Source: a virus
Virus record (IMG/VR): IMGVR_UViG_3300025876_000019
Location: 6,526-70,525 of that record
DNA length: 64,000 nucleotides
Direction: 5' to 3' (one strand)
Part shown: positions 6,355 to 60,886 of the stretch, in pieces
Layout of the letters: each line of letters opens with the position of its first letter
Position numbering within the stretch: position 1 is the stretch's first letter
Notes under the pieces: model-generated
What the model saw: the letters and a program-made list of their open reading frames with translations, nothing else
Database searches by the model: none
Told to the model about the DNA's origin: nothing
Made by a program: the position numbers and the translations under genes

Positions 6355-6567
6355 ATGACTCAATATAATAAAATAGACCGCAACGAAATGACTAAAATAA
6401 AAGAAGCCGCCGAAGTATCTCTCTCCATCTATAACACAATTGATTGTTATCATATGCCAGAGTTAAATCGTGTAGCCCATAAGTCCCTTGGACAAGTCCT
6501 TCGTTCTCTGGTAGAATTACTTGATAATGAACGAAATAAACCTACTGACGACGAACCAGCCACATAG
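6355..6567 (+). CDS. hypothetical protein
   Basis: 70-aa ORF upstream of helicase; start uncertain. Confidence 0.5.
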   Translation: MTQYNKIDRNEMTKIKEAAEVSLSIYNTIDCYHMPELNRVAHKSLGQVLRSLVELLDNERNKPTDDEPAT

Positions 6568-7861: not shown

Positions 7862-8271
7862 TGACAGAAGAACAAGTAGCACAAAATATAATGTTGGCTT
7901 TTCCCAAGATGAATAAGCTGATTAAAGCCGAGGACCAGTTCAGTCCTTTTGATTACGAGAGCATTGATTACTTAGTTGAAATCAAGGTACGCCGAAAGGC
8001 ATATGATCCCTGGATTATTGAGCAGCTAAAGCTTGATACCAATATCGGTATCGCTGAATCAGTAAAGAAGGATTTCATCTATGTCAATGGATACCAACAT
8101 CTTCTGTATGTCTGGAATATCTCTAAGCTAATTCGGGATGACTATGACTTCGGGTTCGAGGATCGTGAGATGCCTTGGACTACGGACTTTGAAGCAGTAC
8201 AAATAATAACCAAGCGTACCGGTTACCTATACAATCGCAGCGCACAAACCATCAATACACAAGAACTATGA
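7861..8271 (+). CDS. small PD-(D/E)XK nuclease-fold protein
   Basis: FSPFD...LVEIKVR motif. Confidence 0.6.
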   Translation: MTEEQVAQNIMLAFPKMNKLIKAEDQFSPFDYESIDYLVEIKVRRKAYDPWIIEQLKLDTNIGIAESVKKDFIYVNGYQHLLYVWNISKLIRDDYDFGFEDREMPWTTDFEAVQIITKRTGYLYNRSAQTINTQEL

Positions 8272-8996
8272 TAGCTACAGAAACATCAAGGGATATAAGC
8301 GTAAATGGAATAAGGGTAACCTGTTACTCGGATGGCAGTATAGAGGTTCACGTTCCGCGCAGTAGAGGTCGTACTTTTGGATGCACGGACGGTAGAGGTT
8401 ACGTGCAGCATACCATTAACTCACATTCATTAAAGATTCACGATTTAATCGCAAGAGCCTTCCTTGGATCGAGACCCAACAACTATGACGTTGATCATAT
8501 CAATGGGGATAAATTAAACAATGCTCCGTACAACCTTCGGTACGTCACACGATCTCAGAATCTAAGGGGGTCACAAAAGATAAAAGGAAATTCCAAGTAC
8601 CGCGGAGTATACTGGCCATCTGGAAAGAAAAGATGCCGAGTTACAATTGATGTCGGTAGAGGCAAGAGCAGGAAGTTGTATGAACTGGGCTACTTTGATG
8701 ACGAGAAGGAGGCCGCTATTGCCCGTGATACCTTCTGCTACGAGGAGTTAAATTATCCACTAGAAGGGTTAAATTTTCCCGAGTTATTTGTTGACAAAGA
8801 GAAGGCTTCCATACAAGTTCAGAGGATGCAAGACAATGAAGAAAACATTGAAAGAATCCAGACCCAGATCGATATGATTCGGCAGGAATCCAGGCTTCTA
8901 TCCTACCGCATTGATCGTATGACCGAGCAGCGAAAGGAGCTACAGGATGAGAAGCGTAACCTAAAAGATTTACTTATCAATTATAAGAACCCATAG
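8268..8996 (+). CDS. HNH endonuclease with AP2-like domain, fused in frame to a C-terminal coiled coil
   Basis: H.LIA.AF...VDHINGDKLNN...NLRYVTRSQN; SKYRGV; LGYFDDEKEAAIARD; LNFP. Confidence 0.85.
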   Translation: MIATETSRDISVNGIRVTCYSDGSIEVHVPRSRGRTFGCTDGRGYVQHTINSHSLKIHDLIARAFLGSRPNNYDVDHINGDKLNNAPYNLRYVTRSQNLRGSQKIKGNSKYRGVYWPSGKKRCRVTIDVGRGKSRKLYELGYFDDEKEAAIARDTFCYEELNYPLEGLNFPELFVDKEKASIQVQRMQDNEENIERIQTQIDMIRQESRLLSYRIDRMTEQRKELQDEKRNLKDLLINYKNP

Positions 8997-16099: not shown

Positions 16100-19000
16100 T
16101 ATATTGTTTCCTCCGTTACAACTTGATAATAAGTAGTGCCATCCAATGCACTTAGAACTGCGTTGACCGTGCGAGATATTACGCCAACCTCAGAGTAACC
16201 AGTTGCTGCTGTAGCACCAGTACCCGTGCAGCTCGATGATGATGATGAAAACGCAGTTTGAACGCTAATAGCATTTGGTGCAGACAAATAGGGTTGCTCG
16301 CTAGATTGGTAAAAAACGCTCCCGCTAGAAGAAGATGATGTTAAATAGCTTCCAACATAGTTCTGAACGTTTGCGCTTGAAGCAAAGCTTTTTTGATAGC
16401 CTACCTGTGAAAGTGTGGTGTTTCCATCAACCGCTGTTGCAACGGACCCATCGCCAGATTGAAGTTTTGTTTGAACAGATGTTACCGAACAAGATATTGC
16501 CCCAAGGTCATAGGCTCGACTAGCCGAGGCAGGTGGTGTTGTTGTAATTTCTATAGTGACCTGAGTTTGTACTTGCTTTTGCCGACGTGGAGTTGAGTTA
16601 GTGATTGCAATTGTACCACTAACATCTCCCTCTGATACAGCTTGAGTTGTACACGCTACGGTCCCTGGAACCTCAACTGTAGCTACGTCAGCATAGACAG
16701 TTTTAACCCCTTCAATCGCACCATCAAGCGTGGTCCTGATGTATTCAATGTATCCGTCCCTGACAATGTCTTGACTGTCAATTAAGACACCATCTGGGAT
16801 AAGTTCTGCCCCAAGGGACCTGATGGTTCTTTGTGTGGTTCCTGGGATATTATTTGGCCCAGCACTTTGAGAGATAAAGATTTGACCTTCCCCTAAAGCT
16901 CCAGAATAATCATATACAGTATGACCATCAGATTTTCTTTCTGATCTGCTTATAATTGTTCCAACTGGAGTTGGGGGTGTACCTACGGAAACAATTCGGT
17001 TAATTTTTAATTTACCTTGATTTCGCTCTTCCGTGCTATTTGATATTTCACCATCGCCAGTGGCTCCAACATTTGTGAAGATAGTATAGCCGTCCTCCTC
17101 CCTAGAAGAGGACGATATGTTGTCGATTCCAGATGCTACGCCGAGTGCAGTTGTTGTAACTATTTGCAGAGTATCTTGATATTGCTTGTCGGTTTTTGCT
17201 GAAATTACTCCAGTACCATTAGCGAATACATTGCGAAACAAAGTGTAGCCGTCTTGTTCGCGGGTAGTTGCTTCAACTTCTACTCCAGCTCCTGTACCCG
17301 CAGAACCCAAGGATTCTACCGTTGTGATTGTGAGTTTCCCCTGATTTTTTGTTTCGACGGTGCGTGACACTTCACCTTGCCCTTCGGCAAAGGTATTGCG
17401 AAATAATGTGTAGCCGTCCTGCTCACGAGTGGTTGCTTCTATCTCAACACCTGTCCCAGTGCCAGCAGTCCCAAGTGCTTCTACCGTAGTAATGGTAAGT
17501 TTACCTTGATTGCGAGTCTCTACGGTACGTGAGACTTCACCGTTTCCCTCGGCAAATGTATTACGGAATAGGGTATAACCATCTTGCTCCCTTGTGGTTG
17601 CCTCAATCTCAACACCAGTCCCAGTGCCAGCACTGCCCAAAGATTCTATCGTAGTAACAGTTAGCTTACCCTGATTGCGTGTCTCGGTAGTACGAGATAC
17701 CTCACCTTGCCCGTCAGCGAATACATTGCGGAAAAGGGTGTATCCGTCTTGCTCCCTTGTAGTGGCTTCAATCTCTACTCCACCCGCACTGCCAGCACTT
17801 CCCAGTGCTTCCACTGTAGTGATAGTTAGTTTACCTTGGTTGCGTGTTTCGGTGCTACGAGAGACTTCTCCATTACCTTGAGCGAATGTATTGCGGAATA
17901 ATGTGTAGCCGTCTTGTTCGCGGGTAGTCGCTTCAATCTCTACACCTGTTCCTGTGCCAGCGGAACCCAAGGATTCAATAGTAGTTACCGTGAGCTTGCC
18001 TTGATTACGGTACTCAGTGCTACGTGAGACCTCACCTTGTCCATCTGCGAATACATTACGGAAAAGAGTATAGCCGTCCTGTTCACGAGTAGTAGCTTCA
18101 ATTCCTACACCTATTGCAGAACCAGCAGTCCCAAGTGCTTCAACCGTAGTTACTGTAAGTTTACCTTGATTACGGTTCTCTACGGTTCTAGATACCTCAC
18201 CTTGTCCATCAGCAAAGACATTGCGAAATAATGTGTATCCATCCTGTTCGCGTGTTGTTGCTTCAACCTCAACCCCCGCTCCTGTTCCAGCACTTCCCAA
18301 GGATTCAACAGTAGTAATGGTAAGTTTACCTTGGTTACGGTACTCAATAGTACGAGAGACTTCACCATCTCCTGTGGCAAATGTATTGCGAAACAACGTG
18401 TAACCATCTTGCTCACGGGTAGTTGCCTCTATTTCTACCCCCGTTCCTGTGCCAGCAGCACCTAGTGCCTCTACCGTAGTTACTGTTAAAGCTCCTTGGT
18501 TTCTGGTTTCTACGGTACGAGATACTTCACCATTACCATCGGCGAAAGTATTGCGGAATAATATGTAACCGTCCTCTTCTCTGGTAGTAGCTTCTATTTC
18601 TATGCCTGTTGCAATTCCTGGAAAACCAAGAGATGTAACAGTAGTAATGGTAAGTGCACCTTGATTTTTAGTCTGGGAACTCCTTTCAACTTCCCCGAAC
18701 CCAAGCGCAAACACGTACTGATTTGTTGGGATACCCTCTACGTCACTTTGCCGAATTGAAATCTGCACTCCACCAATAGTACTTGTAGGAGTTTCGCTGA
18801 ATGCTTCAACTGTTTCAACCTTGAGCTTACCATTGTTTCTTGTGTCAACGTTCCTAGATAGTACTGACGGCTTAAGGAAGGTGTAACGGTTTGTTTTTAT
18901 GCCCTCAAAGTCGGATACCTGCGTGTTGGCTAGTACATATCCATCGGGAGTAGCAGGGTCAGCACCAATGGTTTCAATGACCTTGGCTTTCTGCGAACCT

Positions 19001-20905: not shown

Positions 20906-21070
20906 TTAATCCTTGTCTATGAGTTCCTTGATTACCTTGACCGCCGATGCAGTCATATAAATTAATGTAGCAAAACCTACCGCCATACCCAATGGGTTAT
21001 TATAACCAAGTTCAAGGGTAGCTATAAAGCCCCCTGTGCCTATGGTAGATTTGTAAATAATGTCTTGCAT
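20906..21070 (-). CDS. 54-aa membrane protein (holin candidate), homolog of 55902-56066
   Basis: MQDIIYKSTIGTGGFIATLEL...TLIYMTASAVKVIKEL. Confidence 0.65.
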   Translation of the reverse strand: MQDIIYKSTIGTGGFIATLELGYNNPLGMAVGFATLIYMTASAVKVIKELIDKD

Positions 21071-22870
21071 CATACTTCAGGTTCTGGGTCAGGTGGTAGC
21101 AGTGCTAGGAATGTAGCTTTGTCTACGACTTCGCATTCATCCAGTTTTGCTTGGTCAAGCATCTCCCACAGTTCGTGGTAGATACCGCCTACACCGACCT
21201 CTGTGTAAATGTCACAGCAAGCACCGTAGCGTCCGTCAGTCAACAGCACTGGGCTGATATGATTGCTAGTAGTCAAGGTGTCTTGCTTTGCGATCATTGA
21301 GTCCCGCAGTTCTGCAGGAATCAGAAGATAGTTGTAGCTGTGTTCTTCAGCCGTAGGATTAGTGGCTAGGTATTCTGAGGGTGTCATAATTAAATTGCTG
21401 CGATTTCTGTGATTAGGGTGTCTTGCAGGCCTTCTAGGGTAGCAAGGTCAAGCGCAGGGCCGACGTGATAGGTTGCTAGGCGTGCGTTGCTTGATACAAT
21501 TGTTCCAATGGCAAAAATGCCAATTAGAACTGCATTTGGAGCTGTAGATGTAACAGCCGCTGAATAGTCAGTTGCATTACTGCGAACATCAATATCGGTG
21601 CTTGTGCTGCGAGCTGCACCATACAGTCCAGGTGTAGGAGTCGTGCCTAAAGCTGTTGAGCCGTGAAGCCATTGAGTAGCATTTGCACGTAACACTGCGG
21701 ACTGTGTACTATTGCCTAGTAAAAATCCACCCCCAGCTGTATGTGATTCTTTTATGTAAACGGAAATAGAAGCATCGTTTTGCGATATGGCAGTCCCAGC
21801 TACATTGGTAGCAAGATACTTTGTCGAACCATCACCTTTCAGTCCAGTCAACTGATCCAAATCACCTACAACAAAGTTATTATTTGTCAGCACTGGCATT
21901 CCGCTACGAAGGGGAACCGTAACGCCCTGAATACCTACACCAACAAAGGATGCAGAGGATTTCATATCGTCCCAGTAGGCTCCACCGAGCGTTACTAGAC
22001 TATCAATGTAGTTAGCTAGTGGCTGACGGTATGCGTAGTGCGTAGTGTCACCTGCGGCTACAAGGCGTGAGAAATAATTAGCTGCTTCTGCGGAGAATTG
22101 AGCTTCTGCAACTTCTGTGATTAGGGTGTCTTGCAGTGCTTCTAGGGTAGCAAGGTCAAGTGCAGGGCCTGCGTGGTAGGTTGCTAGGCGTGCGTCTGAA
22201 TAGGAACCTACACTTCCGCCTATAGCATTGTTTGCGGCGAATATGAGTAGATCTGCTTCGTCTTGAGCGCCCGACACTACAGCGGCAGTTAAATCGGTAG
22301 AATCACGACGATATGTAAAATTAGATGAATTATCACGTGCCGAGCCAAAGAATCCATCTGCGGAGTTTACCCCGCCTGCGCCCGCTCCACTGAAATTTCT
22401 CGCATCAATTCGTTGAGCAGAACTTCGATACTGAAAATGAAACGGGTTTCCGCCAGAGCCTGGCTTGATTCCGAGTAGTATTGATTGGTCTGCCGATGTC
22501 GCCGTGTCTAAATCCGTAACATAGAAACTGAGCGAGTTGTCGTTCTGAGCGTAGTCGGTCGTGTCAGTGTTAGTGCTTAGGTATTTGCCTGAGGCTGAGT
22601 TACCCTTCAAACCAGTCAGCTGGTCTAAGTCAAGATCAGTAAAGTTATTCTCCGTAAGAACGGGCATTCCGTCCCTAAGAGGAACTGTAATGCCTTGAAT
22701 ACCTACACCTACAAAGGATGCAGCGGATTCCATCGTGTCCCAGTATGCACCGCCCAGCGATACTAGACTATCAATGTAGTTAGCTAGTGGCTGCTTGTAA
22801 TCAACGTAGGTGGTGTCACCTGCAGTGTCCAAGCGGTCGAAGTAATTCTGTGCTTCTGCCGAGAATGCTT
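20920..22870. repeat. copy 1 of ~2-kb direct repeat (fibre-chaperone-membrane protein module)
   Basis: matches ~55916-57866 at offset 34,996; 21531-22594 appears identical to 56527-57590. Confidence 0.95.
21070..21387 (-). CDS. fibre-associated protein/chaperone, copy 1
   Basis: 105 aa, near-identical to 56066-56383; directly follows fibre gene. Confidence 0.7.
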   Translation of the reverse strand: MTPSEYLATNPTAEEHSYNYLLIPAELRDSMIAKQDTLTTSNHISPVLLTDGRYGACCDIYTEVGVGGIYHELWEMLDQAKLDECEVVDKATFLALLPPDPEPEV

Positions 22871-37106: not shown

Positions 37107-38021
37107 CTAGGCAACTTTGATAGTGCCGTGAACCACACCGAAGTCATCGTTACGGACAGCATTCACGTCTTGCGAAGTGTAGAGCTGTGTAGCGAAACGC
37201 TGTGTAGGCAAGATGTCTAGCTCAGCTGTGCGAGGAGCCCAAGTGTTGCAAGTGATTGCACGTTGGCAGAACGCAAAGAACTGACCAACAGGTACTTGAG
37301 GAACCACCAAAATGGTGAAGCTTTCAGCCTTCTCGACAACACCGTCAGCGAGAGCGCCCAAACGTCCGATAAAGTCGGAATTTTGGAAGTAATCACGGTT
37401 GTTGTTTTTCATCGCAGCAGCGGTGAGAGGGTTAACGCAGAGGTATTTCTCGTCGTTAACATACTCGTCGCGGAACGTAGCATCGATGTTAGCCAAGTCA
37501 TCAGGGGAGATGTAACCAACATTACCTGTTGTGTACTCCTGAGACGCTGGCATTGCAACGGCTGCTTTGTCACCAACTTCGTTTAGTTCACGAAGAACTG
37601 TAGGAGCGAGTGCTGCTTGGATCGCAAGGAGGTCTTCCTGCTTGTAGATCGCGGAGGCGAGGCTCATCATAGTCGGGGACTTGATGTCGATAGCACGCAG
37701 AAGATCATCCTTTTTAGGGATGTTATCAGCAGCTTCGATAGTCTTGCACGACACGTAGGAACCTTGCTTAGTAGAGCCAGTGTAAGGAGTCTGGATGCTG
37801 TACCACTCCGCGAAGTCGGGAGTAGTTACATCACGACGTGATGGAAGGGACTGAGTGGCTGTGACTGTTGCATCATTGGCTTTAAGGCCGTCGATACGAA
37901 CAGAGTCGCCGTGTTTAGTCTCTTGCGAGAACATTTTCATTAGAACGGGCGCTGTTGGTAGCCCGATGAGTTCAGCTACATTGTCGCTGAATGCCTGACG
38001 ATAGATTTGTGGATCTGCCAT
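37107..38021 (-). CDS. major capsid protein (phage B)
   Basis: 304 aa upstream of adaptor, followed by terminator; Q+Y.S....AVR C-terminus. Confidence 0.8.
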   Translation of the reverse strand: MADPQIYRQAFSDNVAELIGLPTAPVLMKMFSQETKHGDSVRIDGLKANDATVTATQSLPSRRDVTTPDFAEWYSIQTPYTGSTKQGSYVSCKTIEAADNIPKKDDLLRAIDIKSPTMMSLASAIYKQEDLLAIQAALAPTVLRELNEVGDKAAVAMPASQEYTTGNVGYISPDDLANIDATFRDEYVNDEKYLCVNPLTAAAMKNNNRDYFQNSDFIGRLGALADGVVEKAESFTILVVPQVPVGQFFAFCQRAITCNTWAPRTAELDILPTQRFATQLYTSQDVNAVRNDDFGVVHGTIKVA

Positions 38022-39421: not shown

Positions 39422-39562
39422 ATGATCATTAAAAAACGAGGCAAAGGCACTGCAATTAACGAGGTTCGCAACAAACGCACCCCAGACGACACCCGATACG
39501 CAGACAACTACGACAGCATTTTCCGCAAACCTGCGGCCAAACCAACCAAGAAATCCAAATAA
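39422..39562 (+). CDS. 46-aa basic protein (not in ORF track)
   Basis: GKG....R......Y..NYD.IF.K pattern seen in small phage proteins. Confidence 0.6.
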   Translation: MIIKKRGKGTAINEVRNKRTPDDTRYADNYDSIFRKPAAKPTKKSK

Positions 39563-39574
39563 CCACACACAACT

Positions 39575-40243
39575 ATGATCGACAACAAATACACCTGCTA
39601 CGAGCTATTCAATGAACTCTACAGAGAGGATAGCGAACGTGCCTGCCACAACGCATACTCCGATGAGGGTCAAGGCGACAAAGCACTTTACGGGAGCATT
39701 GAAGACGCCCTAAAAGGAGCTTTTAATTGGCATGATTCACCAGAAGGTTCGATATTCTGGGAAGAGGTATACGCCGCACTTAGCTTTGGCACTTACGATC
39801 AGCTACGCGCAGATCAGAAGGCTGGCGAATTCTGGTGGCATGACGACGAGACTATGACAGATGAGGGTCTAAACATCCTCAAGGAATGGGCTGGTGAAGC
39901 TAGTGGAGAGCCTGAGCCAAAAACAGGGCTACTGCCAGCAGATGCTGCTGAGCGAAAAACTTACCCTATCTACTCTGGATTCATCAATAATTTCCCCAAC
40001 GCCATTGCTGCCGTGTCTCACTTGAGCTACAAGGGCAGTAAACAGCATCACCCTGACAAACCTGTCCACTGGGACATGAGCAAGTCTGGTGACGAACTAG
40101 ATGCCCTTATGCGTCACATGATCGACGGTGACTGGGAACAGGTTGCTTGGCGGGCGATGGCCAACCTAGAGCGTAAACTGACAGGAAACTGCCAGTATGT
40201 TGCCGACGGGATACATGACAATCAAGGACACTTCATCCTGTAA
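39575..40243 (+). CDS. protein with C-terminal dATP/dGTP diphosphohydrolase-like (DUF5664-type) domain
   Basis: ERK..P.YSG....FP.AIAAVS..S..G..QH.P.....W...KS.D..DAL.RH, VAWRA.A.L. Confidence 0.7.
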   Translation: MIDNKYTCYELFNELYREDSERACHNAYSDEGQGDKALYGSIEDALKGAFNWHDSPEGSIFWEEVYAALSFGTYDQLRADQKAGEFWWHDDETMTDEGLNILKEWAGEASGEPEPKTGLLPADAAERKTYPIYSGFINNFPNAIAAVSHLSYKGSKQHHPDKPVHWDMSKSGDELDALMRHMIDGDWEQVAWRAMANLERKLTGNCQYVADGIHDNQGHFIL

Positions 40244-45993: not shown

Positions 45994-47037
45994 TTAGGTT
46001 AATCCTTCTGAGAGAATGTTAAATGCCACAGCTGCACATTGCGGTACTTGCCCGTTGCCAATGGCTTTAAGTCTGTCCACCCGATTGGCCACCCCATGAG
46101 CCACTCGACCCACGGCGGGTTCAGTTGCGATGACTTTTTCTTCTGTTCCTTTGTTGTTGGGCTTATGTATTTCACGTGGCTCGCTAGGCTCGGAGAGTTT
46201 CTCTTCTCCCAATTCGATTCCGCGAACATTGCCCCCATCATGCAGGTCGGTGTAGGATATTTCTGCTGGGTCGGTGTGCCACCAAGCTTGCCTGAGTCCT
46301 TCACCGCTTGATTGATTGAGTATTGAGCCGTGTGACCACTCTTCCTCAGAGGAGTCCAATTGGGTTGTGTTCCCCTGTTGCCCATGTTGGCATCTGGTGT
46401 GGGCCATTTCATTCTTCCTGTCTCTAAATTTATCATCCCCTCGGCTAAGGCCACCTGTGTTGTCAGGTGAGTGGACTTCGTTACATCCCTCCCGCTCGTC
46501 TTTGCCGACATCCCGCATTGCCCCGCTTTCGGTGTAGGCCAAGACCCACATTCGGTCTCGCTTGTGCGGCGCACCGACAGCCCCAGCTCCGAGCACTCCC
46601 CATCGAGCATTATACCCCAGCGAGGCCAAGTCTTCGAGGACAACTCCAAGTCCCCTAGTGCGAAGCAGTGGTGAGTTTTCGGCAAAGACAAATCGAGGCC
46701 GCATTTCGCCAATGAGTCGCGCATATTCCTTCCATAGTCCCGAACGTTCGCCGGTAATTCCTGCTCCTTTACCTGCCGCAGAGATGTCTTGGCAGGGGAA
46801 TCCTCCGCAAAGAATGTCAACTGATCCGCGCCACGGATTTCCATCGAGGGTTGCCACGTCGTCCCAGATGGGGAAGCTTGGCAAGTGTCCGTCTGCTTGT
46901 CTGGCGAGCAGGACATTGCGTGGGTAGGGTTCGATTTCGCAAGCTCCGATTGGATTGTGTCCAAGTAAGAGGTCACCGAGAATGCCGCCTCCTGCTCCCG
47001 CGAAGAGGTGGAATGTGTTGAGTTTTGTGTGTGCCAT
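45994..47037 (-). CDS. C5-cytosine DNA methyltransferase, alpha polypeptide (phage B)
   Basis: LFAGAGGG, GGFPCQDIS, ENS, HKRDRMW, IGNGQVP. Confidence 0.92.
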   Translation of the reverse strand: MAHTKLNTFHLFAGAGGGILGDLLLGHNPIGACEIEPYPRNVLLARQADGHLPSFPIWDDVATLDGNPWRGSVDILCGGFPCQDISAAGKGAGITGERSGLWKEYARLIGEMRPRFVFAENSPLLRTRGLGVVLEDLASLGYNARWGVLGAGAVGAPHKRDRMWVLAYTESGAMRDVGKDEREGCNEVHSPDNTGGLSRGDDKFRDRKNEMAHTRCQHGQQGNTTQLDSSEEEWSHGSILNQSSGEGLRQAWWHTDPAEISYTDLHDGGNVRGIELGEEKLSEPSEPREIHKPNNKGTEEKVIATEPAVGRVAHGVANRVDRLKAIGNGQVPQCAAVAFNILSEGLT

Positions 47038-47042
47038 GTCAT
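45999..47042 (-). CDS. C5 methyltransferase beta polypeptide in overlapping frame (phage B)
   Basis: 347-aa frame; WPTP, WPTP, YPTP modules; LNPPWVEWLMGWPIGWT = motif IX. Confidence 0.82.
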   Translation of the reverse strand: MTWHTQNSTHSTSSREQEAAFSVTSYLDTIQSELAKSNPTHAMSCSPDKQTDTCQASPSGTTWQPSMEIRGADQLTFFAEDSPAKTSLRQVKEQELPANVRDYGRNMRDSLAKCGLDLSLPKTHHCFALGDLELSSKTWPRWGIMLDGECSELGLSVRRTSETECGSWPTPKAGQCGMSAKTSGRDVTKSTHLTTQVALAEGMINLETGRMKWPTPDANMGNRGTQPNWTPLRKSGHTAQYSINQAVKDSGKLGGTPTQQKYPTPTCMMGAMFAESNWEKRNSPSLASHVKYISPTTKEQKKKSSQLNPPWVEWLMGWPIGWTDLKPLATGKYRNVQLWHLTFSQKD

Positions 47043-48376: not shown

Positions 48377-48610
48377 TTATTTTCCGTTAAGGATGAAAAA
48401 GGACGCAGATTTGCGGATGATCTTGATGGCTTCAGTAGGGGATATACGGTAGCACTGAAGCATATCGTCAACCTCAATGCAGAGGGCAGCTAGAGTGAAG
48501 AAGTCGAGGTAGTCCTCGGACTTAACGTGCGTGATGTTGACGCATGGACGGTCTTGACCAGTTGGCTCCTCGAAGGAGATTTTGAATAGTTCGGTTTTGA
48601 ATGAGTTCAT
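48377..48610 (-). CDS. early hypothetical protein
   Basis: first gene after duplicated early promoter. Confidence 0.6.
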   Translation of the reverse strand: MNSFKTELFKISFEEPTGQDRPCVNITHVKSEDYLDFFTLAALCIEVDDMLQCYRISPTEAIKIIRKSASFFILNGK

Positions 48611-48720
48611 AGTGTGTGTGTTTTTCGTGTGTTTTGTTCGTTGCGTTTGTCGCTTCGATATAACCTACAATGTTCATGAACCTATATAGGTCAACCCCTA
48701 AATCAAATTAAATGAAAATA
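48611..48720 (-). promoter_or_regulatory. early promoter/leader copy 1
   Basis: TTCATTTAATT..TTGACCTATATA..TATCGAAGCGA..CGCAACGAA..GAAAAACACACAC..TATG, matches 51233-51340. Confidence 0.75.
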
Positions 48721-48722
48721 AT

Positions 48723-49124
48723 TTAATTGTCCTGCACAACCCTGATTTCCACCCTCGGATTATCCCTGTCTAACGTGCCTCCAGAGTAGTGGGAGCTTAG
48801 GATTACGTCATCGTTGTCATCGGGGATGCAGCCGAACTCAACCATCGCATCTGCTGCAAACTTCTCATGTTGCGACAAAACATTAGTGCGGTCCGAACGT
48901 CTGTTGCTGGCCTTGAAGTATACCAGCTTCAGCTTGATCGGGTGGGTGAAAATGAGACCCTCCAACTGCTCACGAAGAGCCTCCTTATACACCTGTTTGA
49001 TCTTGTTGCTGACGATGAAATGCCAGTTCCGCTCGTTGTTCTTGTTGATGATATACTTGCGGTCGGCCATCGTCTTGCGTGGTAGCATGACAGATAAAGG
49101 ACACGTTATCACGACATCCGACAT
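48723..49124 (-). CDS. RusA-like Holliday junction resolvase
   Basis: R.D..N....K...DA....G...DDN, PRVEI. Confidence 0.85.
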   Translation of the reverse strand: MSDVVITCPLSVMLPRKTMADRKYIINKNNERNWHFIVSNKIKQVYKEALREQLEGLIFTHPIKLKLVYFKASNRRSDRTNVLSQHEKFAADAMVEFGCIPDDNDDVILSSHYSGGTLDRDNPRVEIRVVQDN

Positions 49125-49417: not shown

Positions 49418-49599
49418 AATCTTATCGGTTCTTTGGTTAACGTCATCGGTGCTTTCGACCGTATGATGACTAAATTGTCTGCCTTGATGCTACCCTTCGC
49501 AAAGAACGCTAGAGCCTTCTCGGGGGTGTCAGCGTGCTTAATGACCCTACAGGCACTTGGCATGATAGGTGTCGTGTATTCAAATTCCCAAGCAGGCAT
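49414..49599 (-). CDS. hypothetical protein, leaderless
   Basis: TTGACC-16-CATTAT-6nt-ATG upstream. Confidence 0.55.
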   Translation of the reverse strand: MPAWEFEYTTPIMPSACRVIKHADTPEKALAFFAKGSIKADNLVIIRSKAPMTLTKEPIRL

Positions 49600-49644
49600 A
49601 GCTAAATAATGGGTAACCAGAATGGTCGGTCAAGCGTTAATGCG

Positions 49645-50730: not shown

Positions 50731-50748
50731 TGTATTGTGTGTTGGTGG

Positions 50749-50943
50749 TTATTTATTAATGTTTCGCATTTTCATTATCGCTGAAAGCGCATTTCTCCTA
50801 ACTGTATCCTTCCTCAATTTACTATTTCGTCGGTGTTGCAACATCGACCTATAATCAGCATCCTTATGAGGGTTGCTCATGGATTCAATGATTGAACACT
50901 TCTCCTCAAAGCTTAACTCTTTGAATTTCTTCTTATGTTTCAT
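50749..50943 (-). CDS. basic early hypothetical protein
   Basis: 64 aa with ACACA-rich leader. Confidence 0.5.
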   Translation of the reverse strand: MKHKKKFKELSFEEKCSIIESMSNPHKDADYRSMLQHRRNSKLRKDTVRRNALSAIMKMRNINK

Positions 50944-50962: not shown

Positions 50963-51232
50963 TTATCGTTGTGAGCGGAATGACTCGTATCGCATTTGAT
51001 CGATCATCTCATCGCGCTCTTCTTGAGCGTATTCGTCGGCGAGGAAGCGGTGTGCAACAGCAGCCTCGGACTCAACCTTATTGTAGATGGCAAATTCCTC
51101 GTCAGAGGTGTCATCGTTAAGCTCCTCATTGATTGCTTCGAGGGCTTCCATAAGGTCGCTGAGTTCGTGACGGTCGGATGCATCTTTGATGTCCGAGCGG
51201 AGTTTGGTGAGTAGGTTGATGAAGTTTTTCAT
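50963..51232 (-). CDS. acidic first early protein
   Basis: 89 aa, D/E-rich; first gene after early promoter copy 2. Confidence 0.65.
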   Translation of the reverse strand: MKNFINLLTKLRSDIKDASDRHELSDLMEALEAINEELNDDTSDEEFAIYNKVESEAAVAHRFLADEYAQEERDEMIDQMRYESFRSQR

Positions 51233-51340
51233 AGTGTGTGTTTTTCGGTTGTTATTCGTTGCGGTAATCGCTTCGATACAACTAAACTTAGGGATAAAGT
51301 TATATAGGTCAATAGCTAAATTGAATTAAATGAAAAAAAA
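51233..51340 (-). promoter_or_regulatory. early promoter/leader copy 2
   Basis: TTGACC-16-TAAGTT; shares blocks with 48611-48720. Confidence 0.75.
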
Positions 51341-51377
51341 CTTATTGACCGAAGTGAGATGGCGGTCATTCTTTTGG

Positions 51378-51446
51378 ACATCGGCAGTGTGTGTCGGTTC
51401 GGTTATCATAGTGGAAGCGTCATCCTTTCGAGGGTGGCGCTTTTTC
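51378..51446 (+). ncRNA. ~70-nt anti-leader small RNA (phage B)
   Basis: TTGACC 51345-16-CATTCT 51367; body GTGTGTGTCGGTTCGGTTATCATAGTG; UUCG-capped terminator 51415-51445. Confidence 0.7.
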
Positions 51447-51460
51447 ATTTGCAAATGCGC

Positions 51461-51600
51461 TTGACAGTCTAATTTAGCCAGTGTTTATTGGTGTCCTAAT
51501 CCGCTTTAAGCCGCTGAGATTTACAGACCTTTTCGTTCGTCTAATTAACGAACATTCTATGTGAGGCCGTTTCAGAGCTTAAACTGGAACGGCCTTTTTA
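51461..51600 (+). promoter_or_regulatory. replication-operon promoter with attenuator-like leader
   Basis: TTGACA 51461; terminator 51564-51599 whose loop GCTTAAA pairs with TTTAAGC 51505-51511. Confidence 0.6.
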
Positions 51601-51614
51601 GGCACACATAGATT

Positions 51615-52127
51615 ATGAGACCAAAATTAAAGAACGAATACATTATCCTCGGCACTATTGCAGTCGTCGACATCTCTACACCCAAGCACCCGAAGGCATC
51701 GATGAAGATTGATCTGGATACGTGGCTCGACCTACTCGACCAAGGTATGGGTCGTGTAAGTAATAACGCGGTTTACGCTCAAGCTAGACTTAAAGGGAAA
51801 CGCAACTTTATCCATAAGTTCATCACCCCAAACTTCAATCTTACGGTTGACCACATCAACGGAGACCCACTTGACAACCGTATGTCGAACCTACGCGACG
51901 TCACTCAGACCGAAAACAATCGCAACCAAAGGTTAAGCAAGTCCAATAAGTCTGGATACTCTGGAATAATGGAGCGAAAGGGCGTCAAGGGTTCAACTTG
52001 GCAGGTGCGAATAGGCGCAAATGGAATGAAGCATATCGGAACATTCAAAAACCTAACAAAGGCCGTAGCCGCCCGTAAGGCTGCGATGGTCAAGTATGGC
52101 TATCACCCCCTGCACGGAGCTAAATAA
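51615..52127 (+). CDS. HNH endonuclease with AP2-like domain
   Basis: VDHINGDPLDNRMSNLR.VT..EN..N, N.SG..G, W.VRI, IGTF....AVAARK. Confidence 0.88.
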   Translation: MRPKLKNEYIILGTIAVVDISTPKHPKASMKIDLDTWLDLLDQGMGRVSNNAVYAQARLKGKRNFIHKFITPNFNLTVDHINGDPLDNRMSNLRDVTQTENNRNQRLSKSNKSGYSGIMERKGVKGSTWQVRIGANGMKHIGTFKNLTKAVAARKAAMVKYGYHPLHGAK

Positions 52128-52128
52128 T

Positions 52129-52845
52129 ATGAGCATTCACATATCATCACCCTGCTGGAAGATCGAATGCCCTACGGCTGGTCAGAAGCTCATTCTACTC
52201 AAGCTTGCGGATAACGCGAATGACGCTGGAGTCTGCTGGCCTTCACTAAGTACGATTGCTAAGGATTGCGGATGCTCAACTAGGACAGTGTCCAGAGCTA
52301 TCGTATACTTCGAGTCGATCAACCTGCTTAGCCATGACCGTCGGTTAAATAGCTCGAACACCTATCAGTTCAATATAGACACCCTGTCTATACTCAGCTC
52401 AGACACTATAGACACCATGTCTACACCTATAGACACCATGTCCATACCTATAGACACCATGTCTAATGCTATAGACACCAGTGTCTCACTAACCGTCATT
52501 GAACCGTCATATAATCATCATATAATCAAAGAGAGGTCTCTTCCCGTTAAGTCTGAAGATCAACTTCGCATCGAGAAGCTATTCGGTAAGCGTGTCACTA
52601 CTCCTATGGACAAGGCTGAGCTATCCGCTTGGGCATCCGCCAAGGGTATCGTAGCTGACATGACCGACCGTGAGTGGACCGAGCTAGAAGACTTCTATGC
52701 TGCACCGCAAGACAAGACCTACGCCCGCAAGACCCTCGCAACTCTTTTGAATAATTTGAGCGGAGAGCTTGACAAGGCATCAAACTGGAGTCACCAACAC
52801 ATCACAGCACAACGAAAAATCTCTAAACCCACGGTCTGGAGCTAA
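52129..52845 (+). CDS. winged-HTH replication initiator (lambda O-like organisation)
   Basis: KLILL.LAD.AND.G.CWPS..TIA...G.S.RTV; internal iterons; directly upstream of helicase. Confidence 0.8.
   Translation: MSIHISSPCWKIECPTAGQKLILLKLADNANDAGVCWPSLSTIAKDCGCSTRTVSRAIVYFESINLLSHDRRLNSSNTYQFNIDTLSILSSDTIDTMSTPIDTMSIPIDTMSNAIDTSVSLTVIEPSYNHHIIKERSLPVKSEDQLRIEKLFGKRVTTPMDKAELSAWASAKGIVADMTDREWTELEDFYAAPQDKTYARKTLATLLNNLSGELDKASNWSHQHITAQRKISKPTVWS
52372..52487 (+). repeat. 21-bp iterons, probable origin of phage B
   Basis: CTATAGACACCATGTC at 52406, 52427, 52448, variant at 52469 and one near 52374; each holds a TAGACA/TGTCTA-type palindrome. Confidence 0.85.
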
Positions 52846-52868
52846 TTAAACACCGAACCAACACACAC

Positions 52869-54200
52869 ATGAATAACACCACCAATAACCACCCTCACAG
52901 CCTCCAGTCCGAGAACACAATCCTTGGGCAGATGCTACAGCACGACGCAGCCTCGATCATTGGCGAAGGAATTACCAAGGACTGGTTCTACTCGGCCGAC
53001 AATCAGCTCATCTTTGAGTCCATCCGCTCGGTATTTGATGCTGGTCAAGATATCGAAGAGCTATCTGTCTTGCCAGTCCTTCAGGCTAACATGGCCGAGG
53101 CTCGCATGAATGTGGACACAGCGATGTCGATGCTTATGGCGTTGCCAATGGTCTACACGGCCACATGGGTATCGGCCCTGCGCAACGTAAAGAACCTGTT
53201 CCTTCAGCGTAAGATGATTCACGCCACACGCAGTATGCTTGAGAACCTCCAGAAGCCACTGGCGTCCTCTGAGGACATCAAATTGGCCATCTCTGAGCCG
53301 ATGAACGAGATATCCACACTCACGCTTGCGGACGACGACAAGACAGCCAAGGAGGAGATCGTGGACTTCATTGACCAGAAGATGAAGGAGCTGTCTGGTG
53401 AGGAAAACCGTATACCTGAGGAGTTTCGCGTTCACACTGGCATGAAGCACCTAGAGGAGACTCTCGGCTACATCGACCGTCGCCGCAAGGATAACAACAT
53501 CATCATCGCAGCACCATCCTCGCGCGGTAAGTCAGCGTTAAAACGTCAGATCATTGTCCACAACCTGTTCAAGCACAAGGACTGGGTCATCGCTGCGTTC
53601 CTGCTTGAGTCATCTAAGGAGGACTTCTGGCACAACACAGCCTGCTCCTACGCTAAGATCAACACACGCCAGCCCCTCAACACGGTTGACGGTAGGAAGC
53701 AGACCCTGTACCTCAAGTGCCTGAATATGCTCAAGGAAGAGACCGACAAACGCCTATTCCTGTTTGACTCGCCTGAGTCTCTTGAAGGTGTGCAGACACG
53801 CTGCCGTGAGATCGCTGCGAAGTGTGGCAAGATCGACATCCTGTGCGTTGACTACATTCAGATTATGGACTCATCGGGTAAGACTAAGGGCAACCGTGAG
53901 ACTGAGGTGGCCGCCATGTCAGGTGGCATCCAGCGCCTACAGAAGAGCCTCAAGTGTGTTGCGTTCAGCGGCACTCAGCTCAATCAGGATGGCCAAGCTA
54001 GAGAGTCACGGGCGATCTTCAATGACGCTACGATCTTCTGGAGGCTTGAGCGGCCAGAGCGTGGAAAGAGCGGACAAGTACAAGAGGACGGCCAGTCAGT
54101 ATACTTTCAGACTGTGCAACAAGTTAAGTGCCGCAACGGTATCCTAGCCACAGCTCAGATTAACTTCGAGGTTACGCATCAGACGATGACGGACGCTTAG
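52869..54200 (+). CDS. dnaB: DnaB-like helicase (phage B)
   Basis: PHSLQSE, AAPSSRGKS, VDYIQI, QLN, RESRAI..DA, K.RNG. Confidence 0.88.
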   Translation: MNNTTNNHPHSLQSENTILGQMLQHDAASIIGEGITKDWFYSADNQLIFESIRSVFDAGQDIEELSVLPVLQANMAEARMNVDTAMSMLMALPMVYTATWVSALRNVKNLFLQRKMIHATRSMLENLQKPLASSEDIKLAISEPMNEISTLTLADDDKTAKEEIVDFIDQKMKELSGEENRIPEEFRVHTGMKHLEETLGYIDRRRKDNNIIIAAPSSRGKSALKRQIIVHNLFKHKDWVIAAFLLESSKEDFWHNTACSYAKINTRQPLNTVDGRKQTLYLKCLNMLKEETDKRLFLFDSPESLEGVQTRCREIAAKCGKIDILCVDYIQIMDSSGKTKGNRETEVAAMSGGIQRLQKSLKCVAFSGTQLNQDGQARESRAIFNDATIFWRLERPERGKSGQVQEDGQSVYFQTVQQVKCRNGILATAQINFEVTHQTMTDA

Positions 54201-55901: not shown

Positions 55902-56066
55902 TTATTTATTGTTAAGTTCCTTAATTACCTTGATTGCGGATGCAGTCATATAGACTAGAGTAGCAAGACCCACAACTAGTCCTAGAATTTCGTTAATGCT
56001 ATTCAATTCGATAGTAGCGACAAAGCCCCCTGTGCCAATAGTTGACTTGTAAATAATGTCGTGCAT
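55902..56066 (-). CDS. 54-aa membrane protein (holin candidate), homolog of 20906-21070
   Basis: MHDIIYKSTIGTGGFVATIEL...TLVYMTASAIKVIKEL. Confidence 0.65.
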   Translation of the reverse strand: MHDIIYKSTIGTGGFVATIELNSINEILGLVVGLATLVYMTASAIKVIKELNNK

Positions 56067-57866
56067 TATGCTTCCTCTTCTGGTTCAGGTGGTAGCAGTG
56101 CTAGGAATGCAGCTTTGTCTACGACTTCGCATTCTTCCAGTTTAGCTTGGTCAAGCATCTCCCATAGTTCGTGGTAGATACCGCCTGCGCCGACCTCTGT
56201 GTAAAGGTCACAGCAAGCACCATAGCGTCCGTCAATCAACAGCACTGGGCTGATATGATTGCTAGTAGTCAAGGTGTCCTGCTTTGCGATCATTGAGTCC
56301 CGCAGTTCTGCTGGAATCAGCAGATAGTTGTAGCTGTGTTCGTCAGCCGTAGGATTAGTTAGTAGGTATTCTGATGAGGTCATAATTAAATTGCTGCGAT
56401 TTCTGTGATTAGGGTTTCTTGCAGACCTTCTAAGGTAGCAAGGTCAAGCGCAAAGCCTGCGTGGTAGGTTGCTAGGCGTGGGTTGCTTGATGCAATTGTT
56501 CCAAGGGCAAAAATGCCAATTAGACCTGCATTTGGAGCTGTAGATGTAACAGCCGCTGAATAGTCAGTTGCATTACTGCGAACATCAATATCGGTGCTTG
56601 TGCTGCGAGCTGCACCATACAGTCCAGGTGTAGGAGTCGTGCCTAAAGCTGTTGAGCCGTGAAGCCATTGAGTAGCATTTGCACGTAACACTGCGGACTG
56701 TGTACTATTGCCTAGTAAAAATCCACCCCCAGCTGTATGTGATTCTTTTATGTAAACGGAAATAGAAGCATCGTTTTGCGATATGGCAGTCCCAGCTACA
56801 TTGGTAGCAAGATACTTTGTCGAACCATCACCTTTCAGTCCAGTCAACTGATCCAAATCACCTACAACAAAGTTATTATTTGTCAGCACTGGCATTCCGC
56901 TACGAAGGGGAACCGTAACGCCCTGAATACCTACACCAACAAAGGATGCAGAGGATTTCATATCGTCCCAGTAGGCTCCACCGAGCGTTACTAGACTATC
57001 AATGTAGTTAGCTAGTGGCTGACGGTATGCGTAGTGCGTAGTGTCACCTGCGGCTACAAGGCGTGAGAAATAATTAGCTGCTTCTGCGGAGAATTGAGCT
57101 TCTGCAACTTCTGTGATTAGGGTGTCTTGCAGTGCTTCTAGGGTAGCAAGGTCAAGTGCAGGGCCTGCGTGGTAGGTTGCTAGGCGTGCGTCTGAATAGG
57201 AACCTACACTTCCGCCTATAGCATTGTTTGCGGCGAATATGAGTAGATCTGCTTCGTCTTGAGCGCCCGACACTACAGCGGCAGTTAAATCGGTAGAATC
57301 ACGACGATATGTAAAATTAGATGAATTATCACGTGCCGAGCCAAAGAATCCATCTGCGGAGTTTACCCCGCCTGCGCCCGCTCCACTGAAATTTCTCGCA
57401 TCAATTCGTTGAGCAGAACTTCGATACTGAAAATGAAACGGGTTTCCGCCAGAGCCTGGCTTGATTCCGAGTAGTATTGATTGGTCTGCCGATGTCGCCG
57501 TGTCTAAATCCGTAACATAGAAACTGAGCGAGTTGTCGTTCTGAGCGTAGTCGGTCGTGTCAGTGTTAGTGCTTAGGTATTTGCCTGAGGTTGAGTTACC
57601 CTTCAAACCAGTCAGCTGGTCTAAGTCAAGATCAATAAAGTTATTCTCCGTAAGAACGGGCATTCCGTCCCTAAGAGGAACTGTAATGCCTTGAATACCT
57701 ACACCTACAAAGGATGCAGCGGATTCCATCGTGTCCCAGTATGCACCACCCAGTGCCACTAGACTATCAATGTAGTTAGCTAGTGGCTGCTTGTAATCAA
57801 CGTAGGTGGTGTCACCTGCTGCGTCCAGGCGGCTAAAGTAGTTTGTTGCCTCTGGCGAGAACGGTG
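55916..57866. repeat. copy 2 of ~2-kb direct repeat
   Basis: matches copy 1 at offset 34,996. Confidence 0.95.
56066..56383 (-). CDS. fibre-associated protein/chaperone, copy 2
   Basis: near-identical to 21070-21387. Confidence 0.7.
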   Translation of the reverse strand: MTSSEYLLTNPTADEHSYNYLLIPAELRDSMIAKQDTLTTSNHISPVLLIDGRYGACCDLYTEVGAGGIYHELWEMLDQAKLEECEVVDKAAFLALLPPEPEEEA

Positions 57867-59887: not shown

Positions 59888-60886
59888 TTAGCTTGCGCTG
59901 ATGATCTTACCGTGAGCACCAGGGTGGTAAACACCGAGGGTCAAAGCGCAATCAACGAAGCCACGGTCGCCGCCACCAAGATTTGGAAGACGAGTGCTGC
60001 CCATAGGGATCAGTTCGTGAACACCGTAGTATTCAGGATTCACCAAGTAACCAGCCATTCCAGCAGTGCCGGCTTGTACTGGCATACAGTCAGGGTTAGC
60101 ATTGACAACAGAGACGATACCGTGATCGCTTTGATAGAGATCAACGGAAAGCTTGATAGTGCCGCTTTCGCCGTTGTAGTTAACTGCACGAACTGAGTCA
60201 CCCGATACGCCACCGATGCGAGCGAAGTCGCTGATGTCTTGACGGAGTGCTGTATCAGCAACCAACATAAGGTTGTTGGATGTACCAGTAACCTTGAAGA
60301 TCGAAGAGATAAGAGAGTTCAATTCGCTTTCTGCGAAATTGCCATCAGTTACGTCAGCGATGCTTGCAGCTGGAGTTTGGAATGTAGCAGGTACGTTACC
60401 CGAACCAGCAGCATTTTGAATCCAGTCACCAAGACCACCAAGGCGATTAACTACACCAGCACCGTCTTCGGTTGTCTGAGTGTTAGCTGAAGCAAGACTT
60501 GCTTCGATGTCGCGCTTGAGTTCACGAATTGCTTTAGCTTCTGCTTGAGCAATCTTAGCTGGGCCAACGGAATCGACTGCTTCTTGCAGATCGGAAACCA
60601 TATAGTCCCGGCGGAACTTTTGAACGCGATTGCCAAGGCGAGCGCGGCCAGCGAATTGGTCAGTGAATGCTGTAACGTCAGCACCTTCAGCGATACCAGC
60701 AGTGCTGGGAGCCGAGAGAGAGTCAACAGTCCACTCAACCTTAGTTGCGGATGCGCCCTTTTTGTTAGCAGAAGAAAGAATAGGTGTTTCTTCTGGTGCG
60801 AGAATTGTCAAGACATCAGTGAGGTCTTCACGATTGGAAACACCGGAACCGGTATTTGTAGTATCGAATGTATTTGAGAATGCCAT
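59888..60886 (-). CDS. major capsid protein (DUF5309/SU10-like), phage A
   Basis: NREDL.D...I.PEETP, EW..D.L, EG.D, N..QKF, ELKRD.E. Confidence 0.9.
   Translation of the reverse strand: MAFSNTFDTTNTGSGVSNREDLTDVLTILAPEETPILSSANKKGASATKVEWTVDSLSAPSTAGIAEGADVTAFTDQFAGRARLGNRVQKFRRDYMVSDLQEAVDSVGPAKIAQAEAKAIRELKRDIEASLASANTQTTEDGAGVVNRLGGLGDWIQNAAGSGNVPATFQTPAASIADVTDGNFAESELNSLISSIFKVTGTSNNLMLVADTALRQDISDFARIGGVSGDSVRAVNYNGESGTIKLSVDLYQSDHGIVSVVNANPDCMPVQAGTAGMAGYLVNPEYYGVHELIPMGSTRLPNLGGGDRGFVDCALTLGVYHPGAHGKIISAS

Follow-up and report, generated by a model that had tools for sequence, protein, structure and literature searches.

A stretch of DNA of 64,000 nucleotides (nt) from an uncultured marine phage, hereafter the window, comprises bases 6526-70525 of the 70,525-bp IMG/VR record IMGVR_UViG_3300025876_000019, for which a completeness estimate of 100 is printed. 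At 51380-51446 on its plus strand, between two divergent blocks of early and replication genes, it very probably contains a real, conserved gene for a small non-coding RNA (sRNA). The predicted RNA exposes a GU-rich sequence that is complementary to the start regions of several genes of the same phage, foremost that of a DnaB helicase. We propose tentatively that it may act on these start regions, while the existence of three or more real targets is doubtful. Transcription in vivo, pairing, repression, and a biological role are what we infer from the anatomy of the unit, its conservation, its strand, and a complementarity that is enriched at translation starts.

Anatomy of the small-RNA gene

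The unit comprises a promoter, a short structured transcript, and an intrinsic terminator, with the following predicted parts:

51345-51372, plus strand: promoter P1, with -35 TTGACC (51345-51350), a 16-nt spacer, and -10 CATTCT (51367-51372)
51380 to ~51446, plus strand: predicted sRNA transcript of ~66 nt
51380-51398, plus strand: 5' hairpin, AUCGGCA (51380-51386) paired with UGUCGGU (51392-51398), loop GUGUG (51387-51391)
51399-51412, plus strand: single-stranded linker UCGGUUAUCAUAGU, unpaired in 12 of 12 folds of distinct variants
51413-51446, plus strand: intrinsic terminator T1, a 14-bp hairpin (51413-51426/51431-51444) with loop UUCG and a U tract at 51441-51445

The predicted 5' end is the A at 51380, 7 nt downstream of the -10 hexamer, and an A-rich tract lies upstream of P1 at 51330-51341. 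The geometry of P1 is that of the other early promoters, with TTGACC, 16 nt, xAxxxT, a further 7 nt, and a transcript beginning AUCG. P1 stands back-to-back with the leftward early promoter, and T1 lies just ahead of the rightward (replication) promoter. The original prediction had placed an RNA with its own promoter and terminator in this divergent early/replication region, and both signals are indeed present there and are conserved in relatives. The 67-nt RNA folds with -26 kcal/mol (z = -4.9), which was equaled by 0 of 200 shuffled sequences, and its GUGUG loop and the linker at 51399-51412 are the likely pairing region. The only feature in the sequence that is related to Hfq is the U tail of the terminator.

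Conservation, strand and coding status

Searches anchored on the helicase gene recovered 4 viral and 48 metagenome loci (L001-L052), which together with the window make 53 sources. BLAST and a covariance model (R1) detected the sRNA unit in 17 of these sources, as 12 distinct sequences scoring 68-98 bits, many of the 17 loci being near-identical populations and hence not independent. R1 found no homologue in the other 36 sources, which include sister clades with 64-85% helicase identity and some of which may not span the right place; five weak R1 matches (E 0.34-0.62) were judged to be noise. A 16-mer pattern gave four matches in viral contigs, one being the L001 contig and three being chance matches in unrelated contexts. 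From viral contigs, the seed pattern recovered the L001 contig alone. Its single match among 185,579 species genomes lies within coding sequence of a metagenome-assembled genome, scores a weak 17.9 bits with the model, and is likewise read as chance.

The promoter has been kept among the relatives, with the -35 hexamer of P1 identical in all 15 that cover the position, the -10 hexamer identical in 16 of 17, and a spacer of 16 nt in every one, even where 10 of its 16 bases differ (L014/L012). Hexamers and spacing have thus been retained over a diverged spacer sequence, which is the signature of a promoter. The transcript is conserved in structure as well. The fold in three parts is common to all 12 distinct variants (z = -4.1 to -5.3; for each of them, 0 of 200 shuffles folded as well), and the 5' hairpin begins at nucleotide 1 in every case. 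Six variants have lost 1 nt from the 3' arm of the 5' hairpin and, in compensation, 1 nt from its 5' arm, and in L016 a G-to-A change converts a U-G pair of this hairpin into a U-A pair. Helix 2, which is that of the terminator, is 99.2% paired, with changes on both sides in 4 of its 11 pairs. Over the whole structure, 93.8% of the cells are paired and five pairs have changed on both sides, either value being reached by 0 of 500 shuffles, compared with 42-56% paired in slid-alignment controls; the alignment had been fitted to the model, which somewhat favors the structure.

Two U-G pairs of the terminator are present in 12 of 12 variants and would be C-A mismatches on the minus strand. The structure is therefore read on the plus strand, the only one that preserves these invariant pairs and bears the U tract. 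At the sequence level, AGTGTGTGTC, TTCGGTTAT, and ATAGT are invariant in all 12 variants, while the P1 spacer and the 7 nt after the -10 hexamer vary. Within the conserved GU-rich seed, AGUGUGUGUC and UUCGGUUAU are invariant, and the loop, like the linker, is unpaired in every fold.

No conserved coding frame was found on either strand of the sRNA unit among the relatives. In alignments read by eye, a plus-strand open reading frame (ORF) of 44 codons (51330-51464) is interrupted in relatives by a 1-nt indel, the minus-strand mini-ORFs opposite the sRNA differ in frame or length between relatives, and all five codon differences between L014 and L016 are non-synonymous. That the segment is merely the leader of a decayed minus-strand gene, a possibility raised together with the original prediction, is excluded as the whole story since there is no conserved minus-strand ORF and the structure belongs to the plus strand. 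The minus strand nevertheless reads like a leader, and the seed may have originated as a copy of one.

Complementarity to start regions

The seed at 51387-51403 is complementary at 16 of 17 positions to 52852-52868, which abuts the ATG of the helicase gene. Besides the seed itself, it is the sole site of the window with three mismatches or fewer, against 0.10 expected, and two or more such sites occur in 0 of 100 shuffles. The complementarity of the first seed to the helicase leader is confirmed as first described, and the helicase start region is the best and most conserved predicted target:

52848-52871, plus strand: helicase start region, ACCGAACCAACACACAC directly before the ATG at 52869

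The second predicted target is the leader of the leftward promoter PL, which can pair with the sRNA through 7 bp, an internal loop, and 8-9 bp, or alternatively through 8 bp over the AUG. A second seed had been proposed at 51406-51413, and its complement, CACTATGA, occurs five times in the window. Four copies lie exactly on the start codons of 38859, 48372, 48610, and 51232, as had been claimed, and the fifth is the copy in the sRNA itself; the count alone, however, is not significant, with 2.2 copies expected and five reached by 9 of 100 shuffles.

A wider comparison covered 97 start regions (-35 to +15) and the 36-nt core of the sRNA. A perfect 8-mer complement of the core is present in 11 of the 97 start regions, compared with 2.66 ± 1.77 in dinucleotide shuffles (0 of 500 reach 11), and a 7-mer complement in 18, compared with 9.8 ± 3.6 (11 of 500 shuffles reach this number). 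The 8-mer rate of 11.3% in start regions is 12-fold that of 50-nt windows tiled over the genome (0.92%, 26/2813; Fisher 1.3e-8). When ranked by plain duplex energy, four start regions reach -26 kcal/mol or lower, compared with 1.1 ± 0.96 in mononucleotide shuffles, 1 of 60 of which reaches four. The top-ranked partners are the start regions of 50943, 52869, 47037, and 51232, all of which belong to the early module, and that of 50943 ranks first in both energy rankings. Complementarity of the sRNA to several of the phage's own start regions, the central observation of the original prediction, is thus real and non-random.

All 17 loci have kept the potential to pair with the helicase leader, with duplexfold energies of -22 to -30 kcal/mol. 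For the two main seed types, the predicted energies are -28.8 and -28.4 kcal/mol with the cognate helicase leaders and -24.2 and -27.2 kcal/mol with the crossed leaders. In L016, which has the G-to-A change in the seed, the rightward leader and the helicase leader both have a T, the energies differing little. The anticipated covariation of seed and leader is therefore visible as a better cognate fit for the two main seed types, but it is weak overall and does not extend to the second seed.

CA-rich leaders and promoter-leader cassettes

Many early genes of the window lack a Shine-Dalgarno (SD) sequence and are preceded by (A)TAACC or AACCGAA and then ACACACA, 0-7 nt before the ATG. Within -22 to -1, ACACAC or CACACA is found in 8 of 18 genes at 45.7-54.2 kb vs 1 of 79 genes elsewhere (Fisher 2.5e-6), and the CA leader is accordingly specific to the early module, as had been supposed. 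Clear SD sequences occur in some neighbors within the same operons (49124, 50438), and the stretch 39550-39577 was also listed with the SD-less CA-rich leaders of the early module. The motif is present in 46 of 196 called genes of the sRNA-bearing loci vs 5 of 308 in related loci without the sRNA, which is essentially one phylogenetic contrast. Most plausibly, the leader motif is an SD-independent translation enhancer; ACA motifs are proven translation enhancers in Salmonella (PMC3879156). Two leaders of the leftward block illustrate the arrangement:

51229-51312, minus strand: leftward cassette PL, with -35 TTGACC (51312-51307), -10 TAAGTT (51290-51285), and a predicted start at ~51277
50731-50755, minus strand: leader of gene 50730, ATAACCACCAACACACAATACA-ATG, of the ATAACC...ACACACA type and a further predicted target of the sRNA

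The PL leader ends in AACCGAAAAACACACACT with the ATG at 51232, and the ATG at 50943 is preceded by a leader of the ATAACC...ACACACA type as well. Promoter and leader recur together as a cassette, of which the paralogous copies 51229-51350 and 48606-48732 share 74% identity over 127 nt. The layout of the cassette is TTGACCTATATA..., the -10 hexamer, ATCGAAGCGA..CGCAACGAA.., and then ACACACACT-ATG. In 12 related loci, a PL-type cassette is the rightward promoter directly after the sRNA terminator. The cassette is thus found in both orientations among relatives, and as a repeated element it could be a recombination joint for the shuffling of early genes.

Further signals of this kind were noted nearby. 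On the minus strand at 49606-49633, immediately behind a terminator-like hairpin, lies TTGACC-16-CATTAT, whose end is 6 nt from the ATG at 49599; it is a candidate promoter for a leaderless mRNA. A second plus-strand unit at 51461-51614 consists of a promoter-like TTGACA (51461-51466), 17 nt, TTTATT (51484-51489), and a structured leader of ~110 nt, which ends in a strong terminator-like hairpin (51565-51594) and a T run (51595-51599), 15 nt before the ATG of the HNH endonuclease gene. Its fold has z = -4.1, and the pairing of the hairpin is kept between the window and L001 via changes on both arms. This unit is present in five loci, the 12 others having the PL-type cassette instead. The replication operon may be controlled by it, either through attenuation or through another small RNA.

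Genome setting

The sRNA locus lies within a 382-bp intergenic gap (51233-51614) that separates the two divergent gene blocks. The leftward block starts from the ATG at 51232 with four small proteins without a family match, and it also includes an ERF recombinase, RusA, a cell-wall hydrolase, a helix-turn-helix protein, SSB, and a C5 methylase, followed by terminase and portal genes. The rightward block encodes an HNH endonuclease (51615), an O-like initiator (52096), and the helicase at 52869, which matches DnaB_C and DnaB in Pfam. Inside the initiator gene, at 52390-52470, about four direct repeats of ~16 nt each (CTATAGACACCATGTC-like) were read by eye and are probably the iterons of a replication origin. 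The whole 70.5-kb record has no match to PF00589 (tyrosine integrase), PF00239 (serine recombinase), or PF01381 (HTH_3 repressor). There is no close cultured phage, as the portal and helicase proteins reach at most ~27% identity to those of cultured phages, and a search of cultured-phage DNA with 4.5 kb around the site gave two short unrelated matches only.

Several functions occur twice in the record, namely DnaB-like helicases (6527-7861 and 52869-54200), proteins matching major-head families (37107-38021 and 59888-60886), and HNH endonucleases (8268-8996 and 51615-52127). Mis-assembly is not obvious, since the junction that follows the second helicase recurs in the independent contigs L001 and L003, but the record may still represent a composite or a genome of unusual redundancy. 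A 1.95-kb segment is repeated at 95% identity (20922-22865 and 55915-57861) and covers two ORFs of 518 and 511 amino acids plus their upstream genes, and the large ORF at 17208-18674 has internal repeats offset by multiples of ~165 nt. At 45994-47042 on the minus strand, two overlapping frames with a 5-nt offset are both open over 347 codons. One is a C5 cytosine methylase (Pfam residues 7-235), while the other has no Pfam match and contains the stretch VEWLMGWPIGW, which we take to be characteristic of the C-terminal region of C5 methylases in phages. Frameshifts, indels introduced during assembly, or overprinting could account for the two open frames.

Proposed function and alternative explanations

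The sRNA would be transcribed from its own early promoter of the sigma-70 type and ended by the intrinsic terminator. Its three parts would be the 5' hairpin with the GUGUG loop, the invariant single-stranded UCGGUUAU...AUAGU, and the terminator hairpin with the U tail. Together, loop and single-stranded stretch would represent the reverse complement of a ribosome-loading signal that is SD-less and private to the clade (ATAACC / AACCGAA ... ACACACA). Because the exposed part of the sRNA complements the start signal of the early and replication genes, occlusion of 30S loading is the natural reading: the GU-rich RNA would pair in trans with CA-rich start regions, block the loading of 30S ribosomal subunits, and reduce translation in the manner of the sRNA GcvB, and the stability of the mRNA would probably be lowered too. 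The DnaB helicase would be the strongest target, followed by the genes that open the leftward operon and, among relatives, by those that open the rightward operon. From an early-type promoter, the RNA would accumulate together with its targets and could provide a delayed negative feedback on early and replication expression. A role in timing or feedback during the lytic cycle is favored over lysogenic immunity, for which there is no support, since the record has no integrase, resolvase, or HTH_3 and the seed pattern led to no prophage in the 185,579 species genomes. The seed mirrors a start signal that is specific to one module, and a regulon function is plausible. In its broadest form, the proposal would be that in a clade of virulent marine phages one 66-nt RNA reads a private, SD-free CA start signal and shuts the whole early programme, which we consider rather unlikely.

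Several observations, to which the non-independence of many of the 17 loci has to be added, weigh against this reading. The -10 hexamer CATTCT matches the consensus at 3 of 6 positions only, A2 and T6 being kept, and a simple consensus scan for promoters and terminators missed P1, T1, and T2 and returned sites no more numerous than in shuffles. Seven bases of the seed (51392-51398) are locked in the stem of the 5' hairpin. In a cofold calculation that charges the cost of opening both the sRNA and the target structure, five start regions reach -16 kcal/mol or lower vs 5.5 ± 4.0 in dinucleotide shuffles, and the best value of -23.2 is matched by 4 of 40 shuffles, which form no 5' hairpin and are therefore a harsh control; in this test, any GU-rich RNA pairs with these CA-rich leaders. 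The seed is nearly invariant, the gaps between cognate and crossed pairs amount to a few kcal/mol, and the covariation comes down to one indel and one substitution, both of which also fit the hairpin. The second seed is not tracked at all, as the leftward start has CACTATGA, CATTATGA, or CACCATGA depending on the relative while ATAGT in the sRNA is constant. With a cofold result equal to that of shuffles, a second seed that is not kept in relatives, and weak covariation, the multi-target regulon action claimed at the outset is not supported by these tests, and the suggested sparing of leaderless late genes, like a role in early shut-off, a carrier state, or immunity, is conjectural. In addition, leaders of the ATAACC...ACACAC type are also found in more distant loci without a detected sRNA (L041, L032), and TAACC and AACCGAA show a 5-10 fold enrichment ahead of starts across the genome, beyond the early module. 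The motif therefore has a function of its own, independent of the sRNA.

The RNA data point in both directions. Five metatranscriptome runs contain part of a 2.5-kb stretch that includes the sRNA, four of which were examined, as assembled contigs only, which indicate presence in RNA libraries. In one run, a 206-nt contig over 51240-51445 stops at the U tract, and its end at 51445 is at most a weak hint of the 3' end of the sRNA, but a second contig from the same sample (51392-51899) extends over the terminator as far as the HNH gene, and most of the remaining 2.5-kb stretch has no contig cover. Run X5 gave a match of 36 nt that is part of another organism's contig and was set aside.

Real sRNAs with other purposes have to be considered alongside the proposed one. 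The sRNA could mainly target host mRNAs as a mimic of GcvB, at CA-rich starts such as those of transporters, with the match to phage leaders as a side effect. Its core is GU-rich and partly unstructured, and GU-rich shuffles pair about equally with CA leaders, which implies a low specificity with host CA sites being hit too; moreover, seeds of the GcvB type control dozens of host mRNAs (PMC3879156), and host targets are known for two sRNAs of phages, PreS and VpdS (PMC12197685). This explanation leaves over the long 16/17 match with the helicase leader of the phage itself, for which 0.10 is expected, and the 12-fold enrichment of 8-mers at the phage's own starts. Rfam gives no GcvB match, and we regard a mainly host-directed role as improbable. 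Alternatively, the RNA could be a single-purpose controller of replication, pairing only with the helicase start and perhaps with that of the first rightward gene, the other matches being noise; it would then set the level of the O-like initiator/DnaB module like the antisense RNAs in plasmid copy control. The helicase leader is the only extended match, it has remained a top-scoring partner in all 17 loci, its cognate combinations score above the crossed ones, and the sRNA adjoins dnaB and the initiator gene with its probable iterons. However, the sRNA is trans-encoded, 1.4 kb upstream, and is not a countertranscript of a replication leader; 8-mer complements lie at 11 start regions, far above shuffles, and the start regions of 50943 and 51232 score equal to the helicase leader. 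A restriction to replication is for these reasons quite unlikely.

Two further explanations dispense with a function of the RNA in trans. In one, the transcription unit itself matters, a captured inverted duplicate of a cassette that insulates or tunes the early promoters, for example because RNA polymerase occupies the site or because transcription is kept from reading through into the rightward operon. The architecture of P1 and the AUCG transcript start are those of other early promoters and leaders, the seed resembles a chimera of two leader types, which makes an origin by duplication plausible, T1 ends 5-25 nt before the rightward -35 hexamer in all relatives, and the cofold test shows no target specificity. 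An insulator would nevertheless need neither the 24 invariant unpaired positions of loop and linker, maintained while the spacer, the start-proximal bases, and the terminator loop drift, nor a hairpin preserved by a compensated indel, and the concentration of 8-mer complements at start codons would be unexplained; we give this explanation little probability. In the other, there is no RNA gene, and the segment is a DNA-level site (operator) or the leader copy of a lost minus-strand gene. The minus strand at 51413-51379 does resemble a leader, with CACTATGA, ATAACCGAACCGACACACAC, and an ATG 13 nt later, in the orientation of the leftward genes. This last possibility is very improbable, given that no minus-strand ORF is conserved in frame or length, that both hairpins use U-G pairs, which turn into C-A in the opposite strand, and only the plus strand has the U tract, that the plus-strand promoter hexamers are conserved over a diverged spacer, and that no promoter on the right side is available to transcribe the minus strand here. 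A motif that stands beside start codons within operons moreover points to a signal at the RNA level and not to an operator.

Comparison with known regulatory RNAs

Most of what is known about regulatory RNAs in phages comes from a small number of temperate models, and the kinds distinguished in a 2025 review are cis-antisense RNAs, processed RNAs of the immunity type, and host-directed sRNAs (PMC12197685). A limited literature search, which covered excerpts of that review, revealed no phage RNA directed against a start signal that the early genes of the phage itself have in common. The small RNAs sar of P22, OOP of lambda, and aQ have their own promoter and terminator, overlap their target gene on the opposite strand, and repress phage genes by pairing (PMC12197685). 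The sRNA described here shares with them a promoter and a terminator of its own and a pairing, in this case predicted, with phage genes, but no conserved gene or leader lies opposite 51380-51446, and the leftward transcript starts ~100 nt further left. Since its predicted targets lie elsewhere, the sRNA is trans-encoded, unlike sar, OOP, and aQ.

The c4 RNA of P1 is a trans-acting RNA that represses the synthesis of Ant (PMC8546580), and the CI RNA of P4 is cut from the untranslated leader of the operon that it controls and terminates transcription at the flanking seqA and seqC (PMC4825925). Like the sRNA as proposed here, c4 of P1/P7 and CI are short phage RNAs that use short complementary repeats against transcripts of their own phage, those of the antirepressor for c4 and those of replication for CI (PMC8546580; PMC4825925). 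In contrast to CI, the sRNA has a conserved promoter of its own, and the plus strand upstream offers no source of a precursor; in contrast to both, its predicted targets are start regions on both strands. Another precedent is RegA of phage T4, a protein that represses the translation of many early mRNAs via a loosely shared sequence in their start regions. One phage factor would act on many early starts in both cases, by a protein in T4 and by the base pairing of an RNA as proposed here.

The closest mechanism, by analogy, is that of GcvB, and the original statement that no equivalent had been described was therefore wrong. GcvB, a multi-target Hfq sRNA of enterobacteria, carries a conserved, unstructured GU-rich region, R1, which pairs with CA-rich, ACA-containing elements in or near the ribosome-binding sites of more than 40 mRNAs, and these CA-rich elements are themselves translation enhancers (PMC3879156). 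The sRNA has in common with GcvB a GU-rich seed directed at CA-rich start elements, the pairing being predicted here and repression being known for GcvB, and a promoter of its own, divergent from the neighboring gene, together with an intrinsic terminator (PMC3879156). GcvB differs in its length of ~200 nt from the phage-encoded RNA of ~66 nt, which has part of its seed in a hairpin loop and is predicted to target early and replication genes of its own phage, with SD-less leaders. Over the window, no Rfam family reaches its gathering score, that of GcvB (RF00022) included, and the sole match at E <= 1 over 51230-51650 is a sub-threshold match of the terminator to Atu_C9. In the absence of an Rfam match, the phage sRNA is not regarded as a homologue of GcvB. 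If the proposed function is true, the GcvB principle of a GU seed against a CA enhancer would have arisen independently in a virus, the CA-rich SD-less leaders would amount to a module-specific translation code, and uncultured marine phages would time their expression by means of a base-pairing RNA, which could also blunt a superinfecting relative that shares the start signal. The sRNA would then do by RNA alone what RegA does in T4, and would be an analogue of GcvB carried by a phage.

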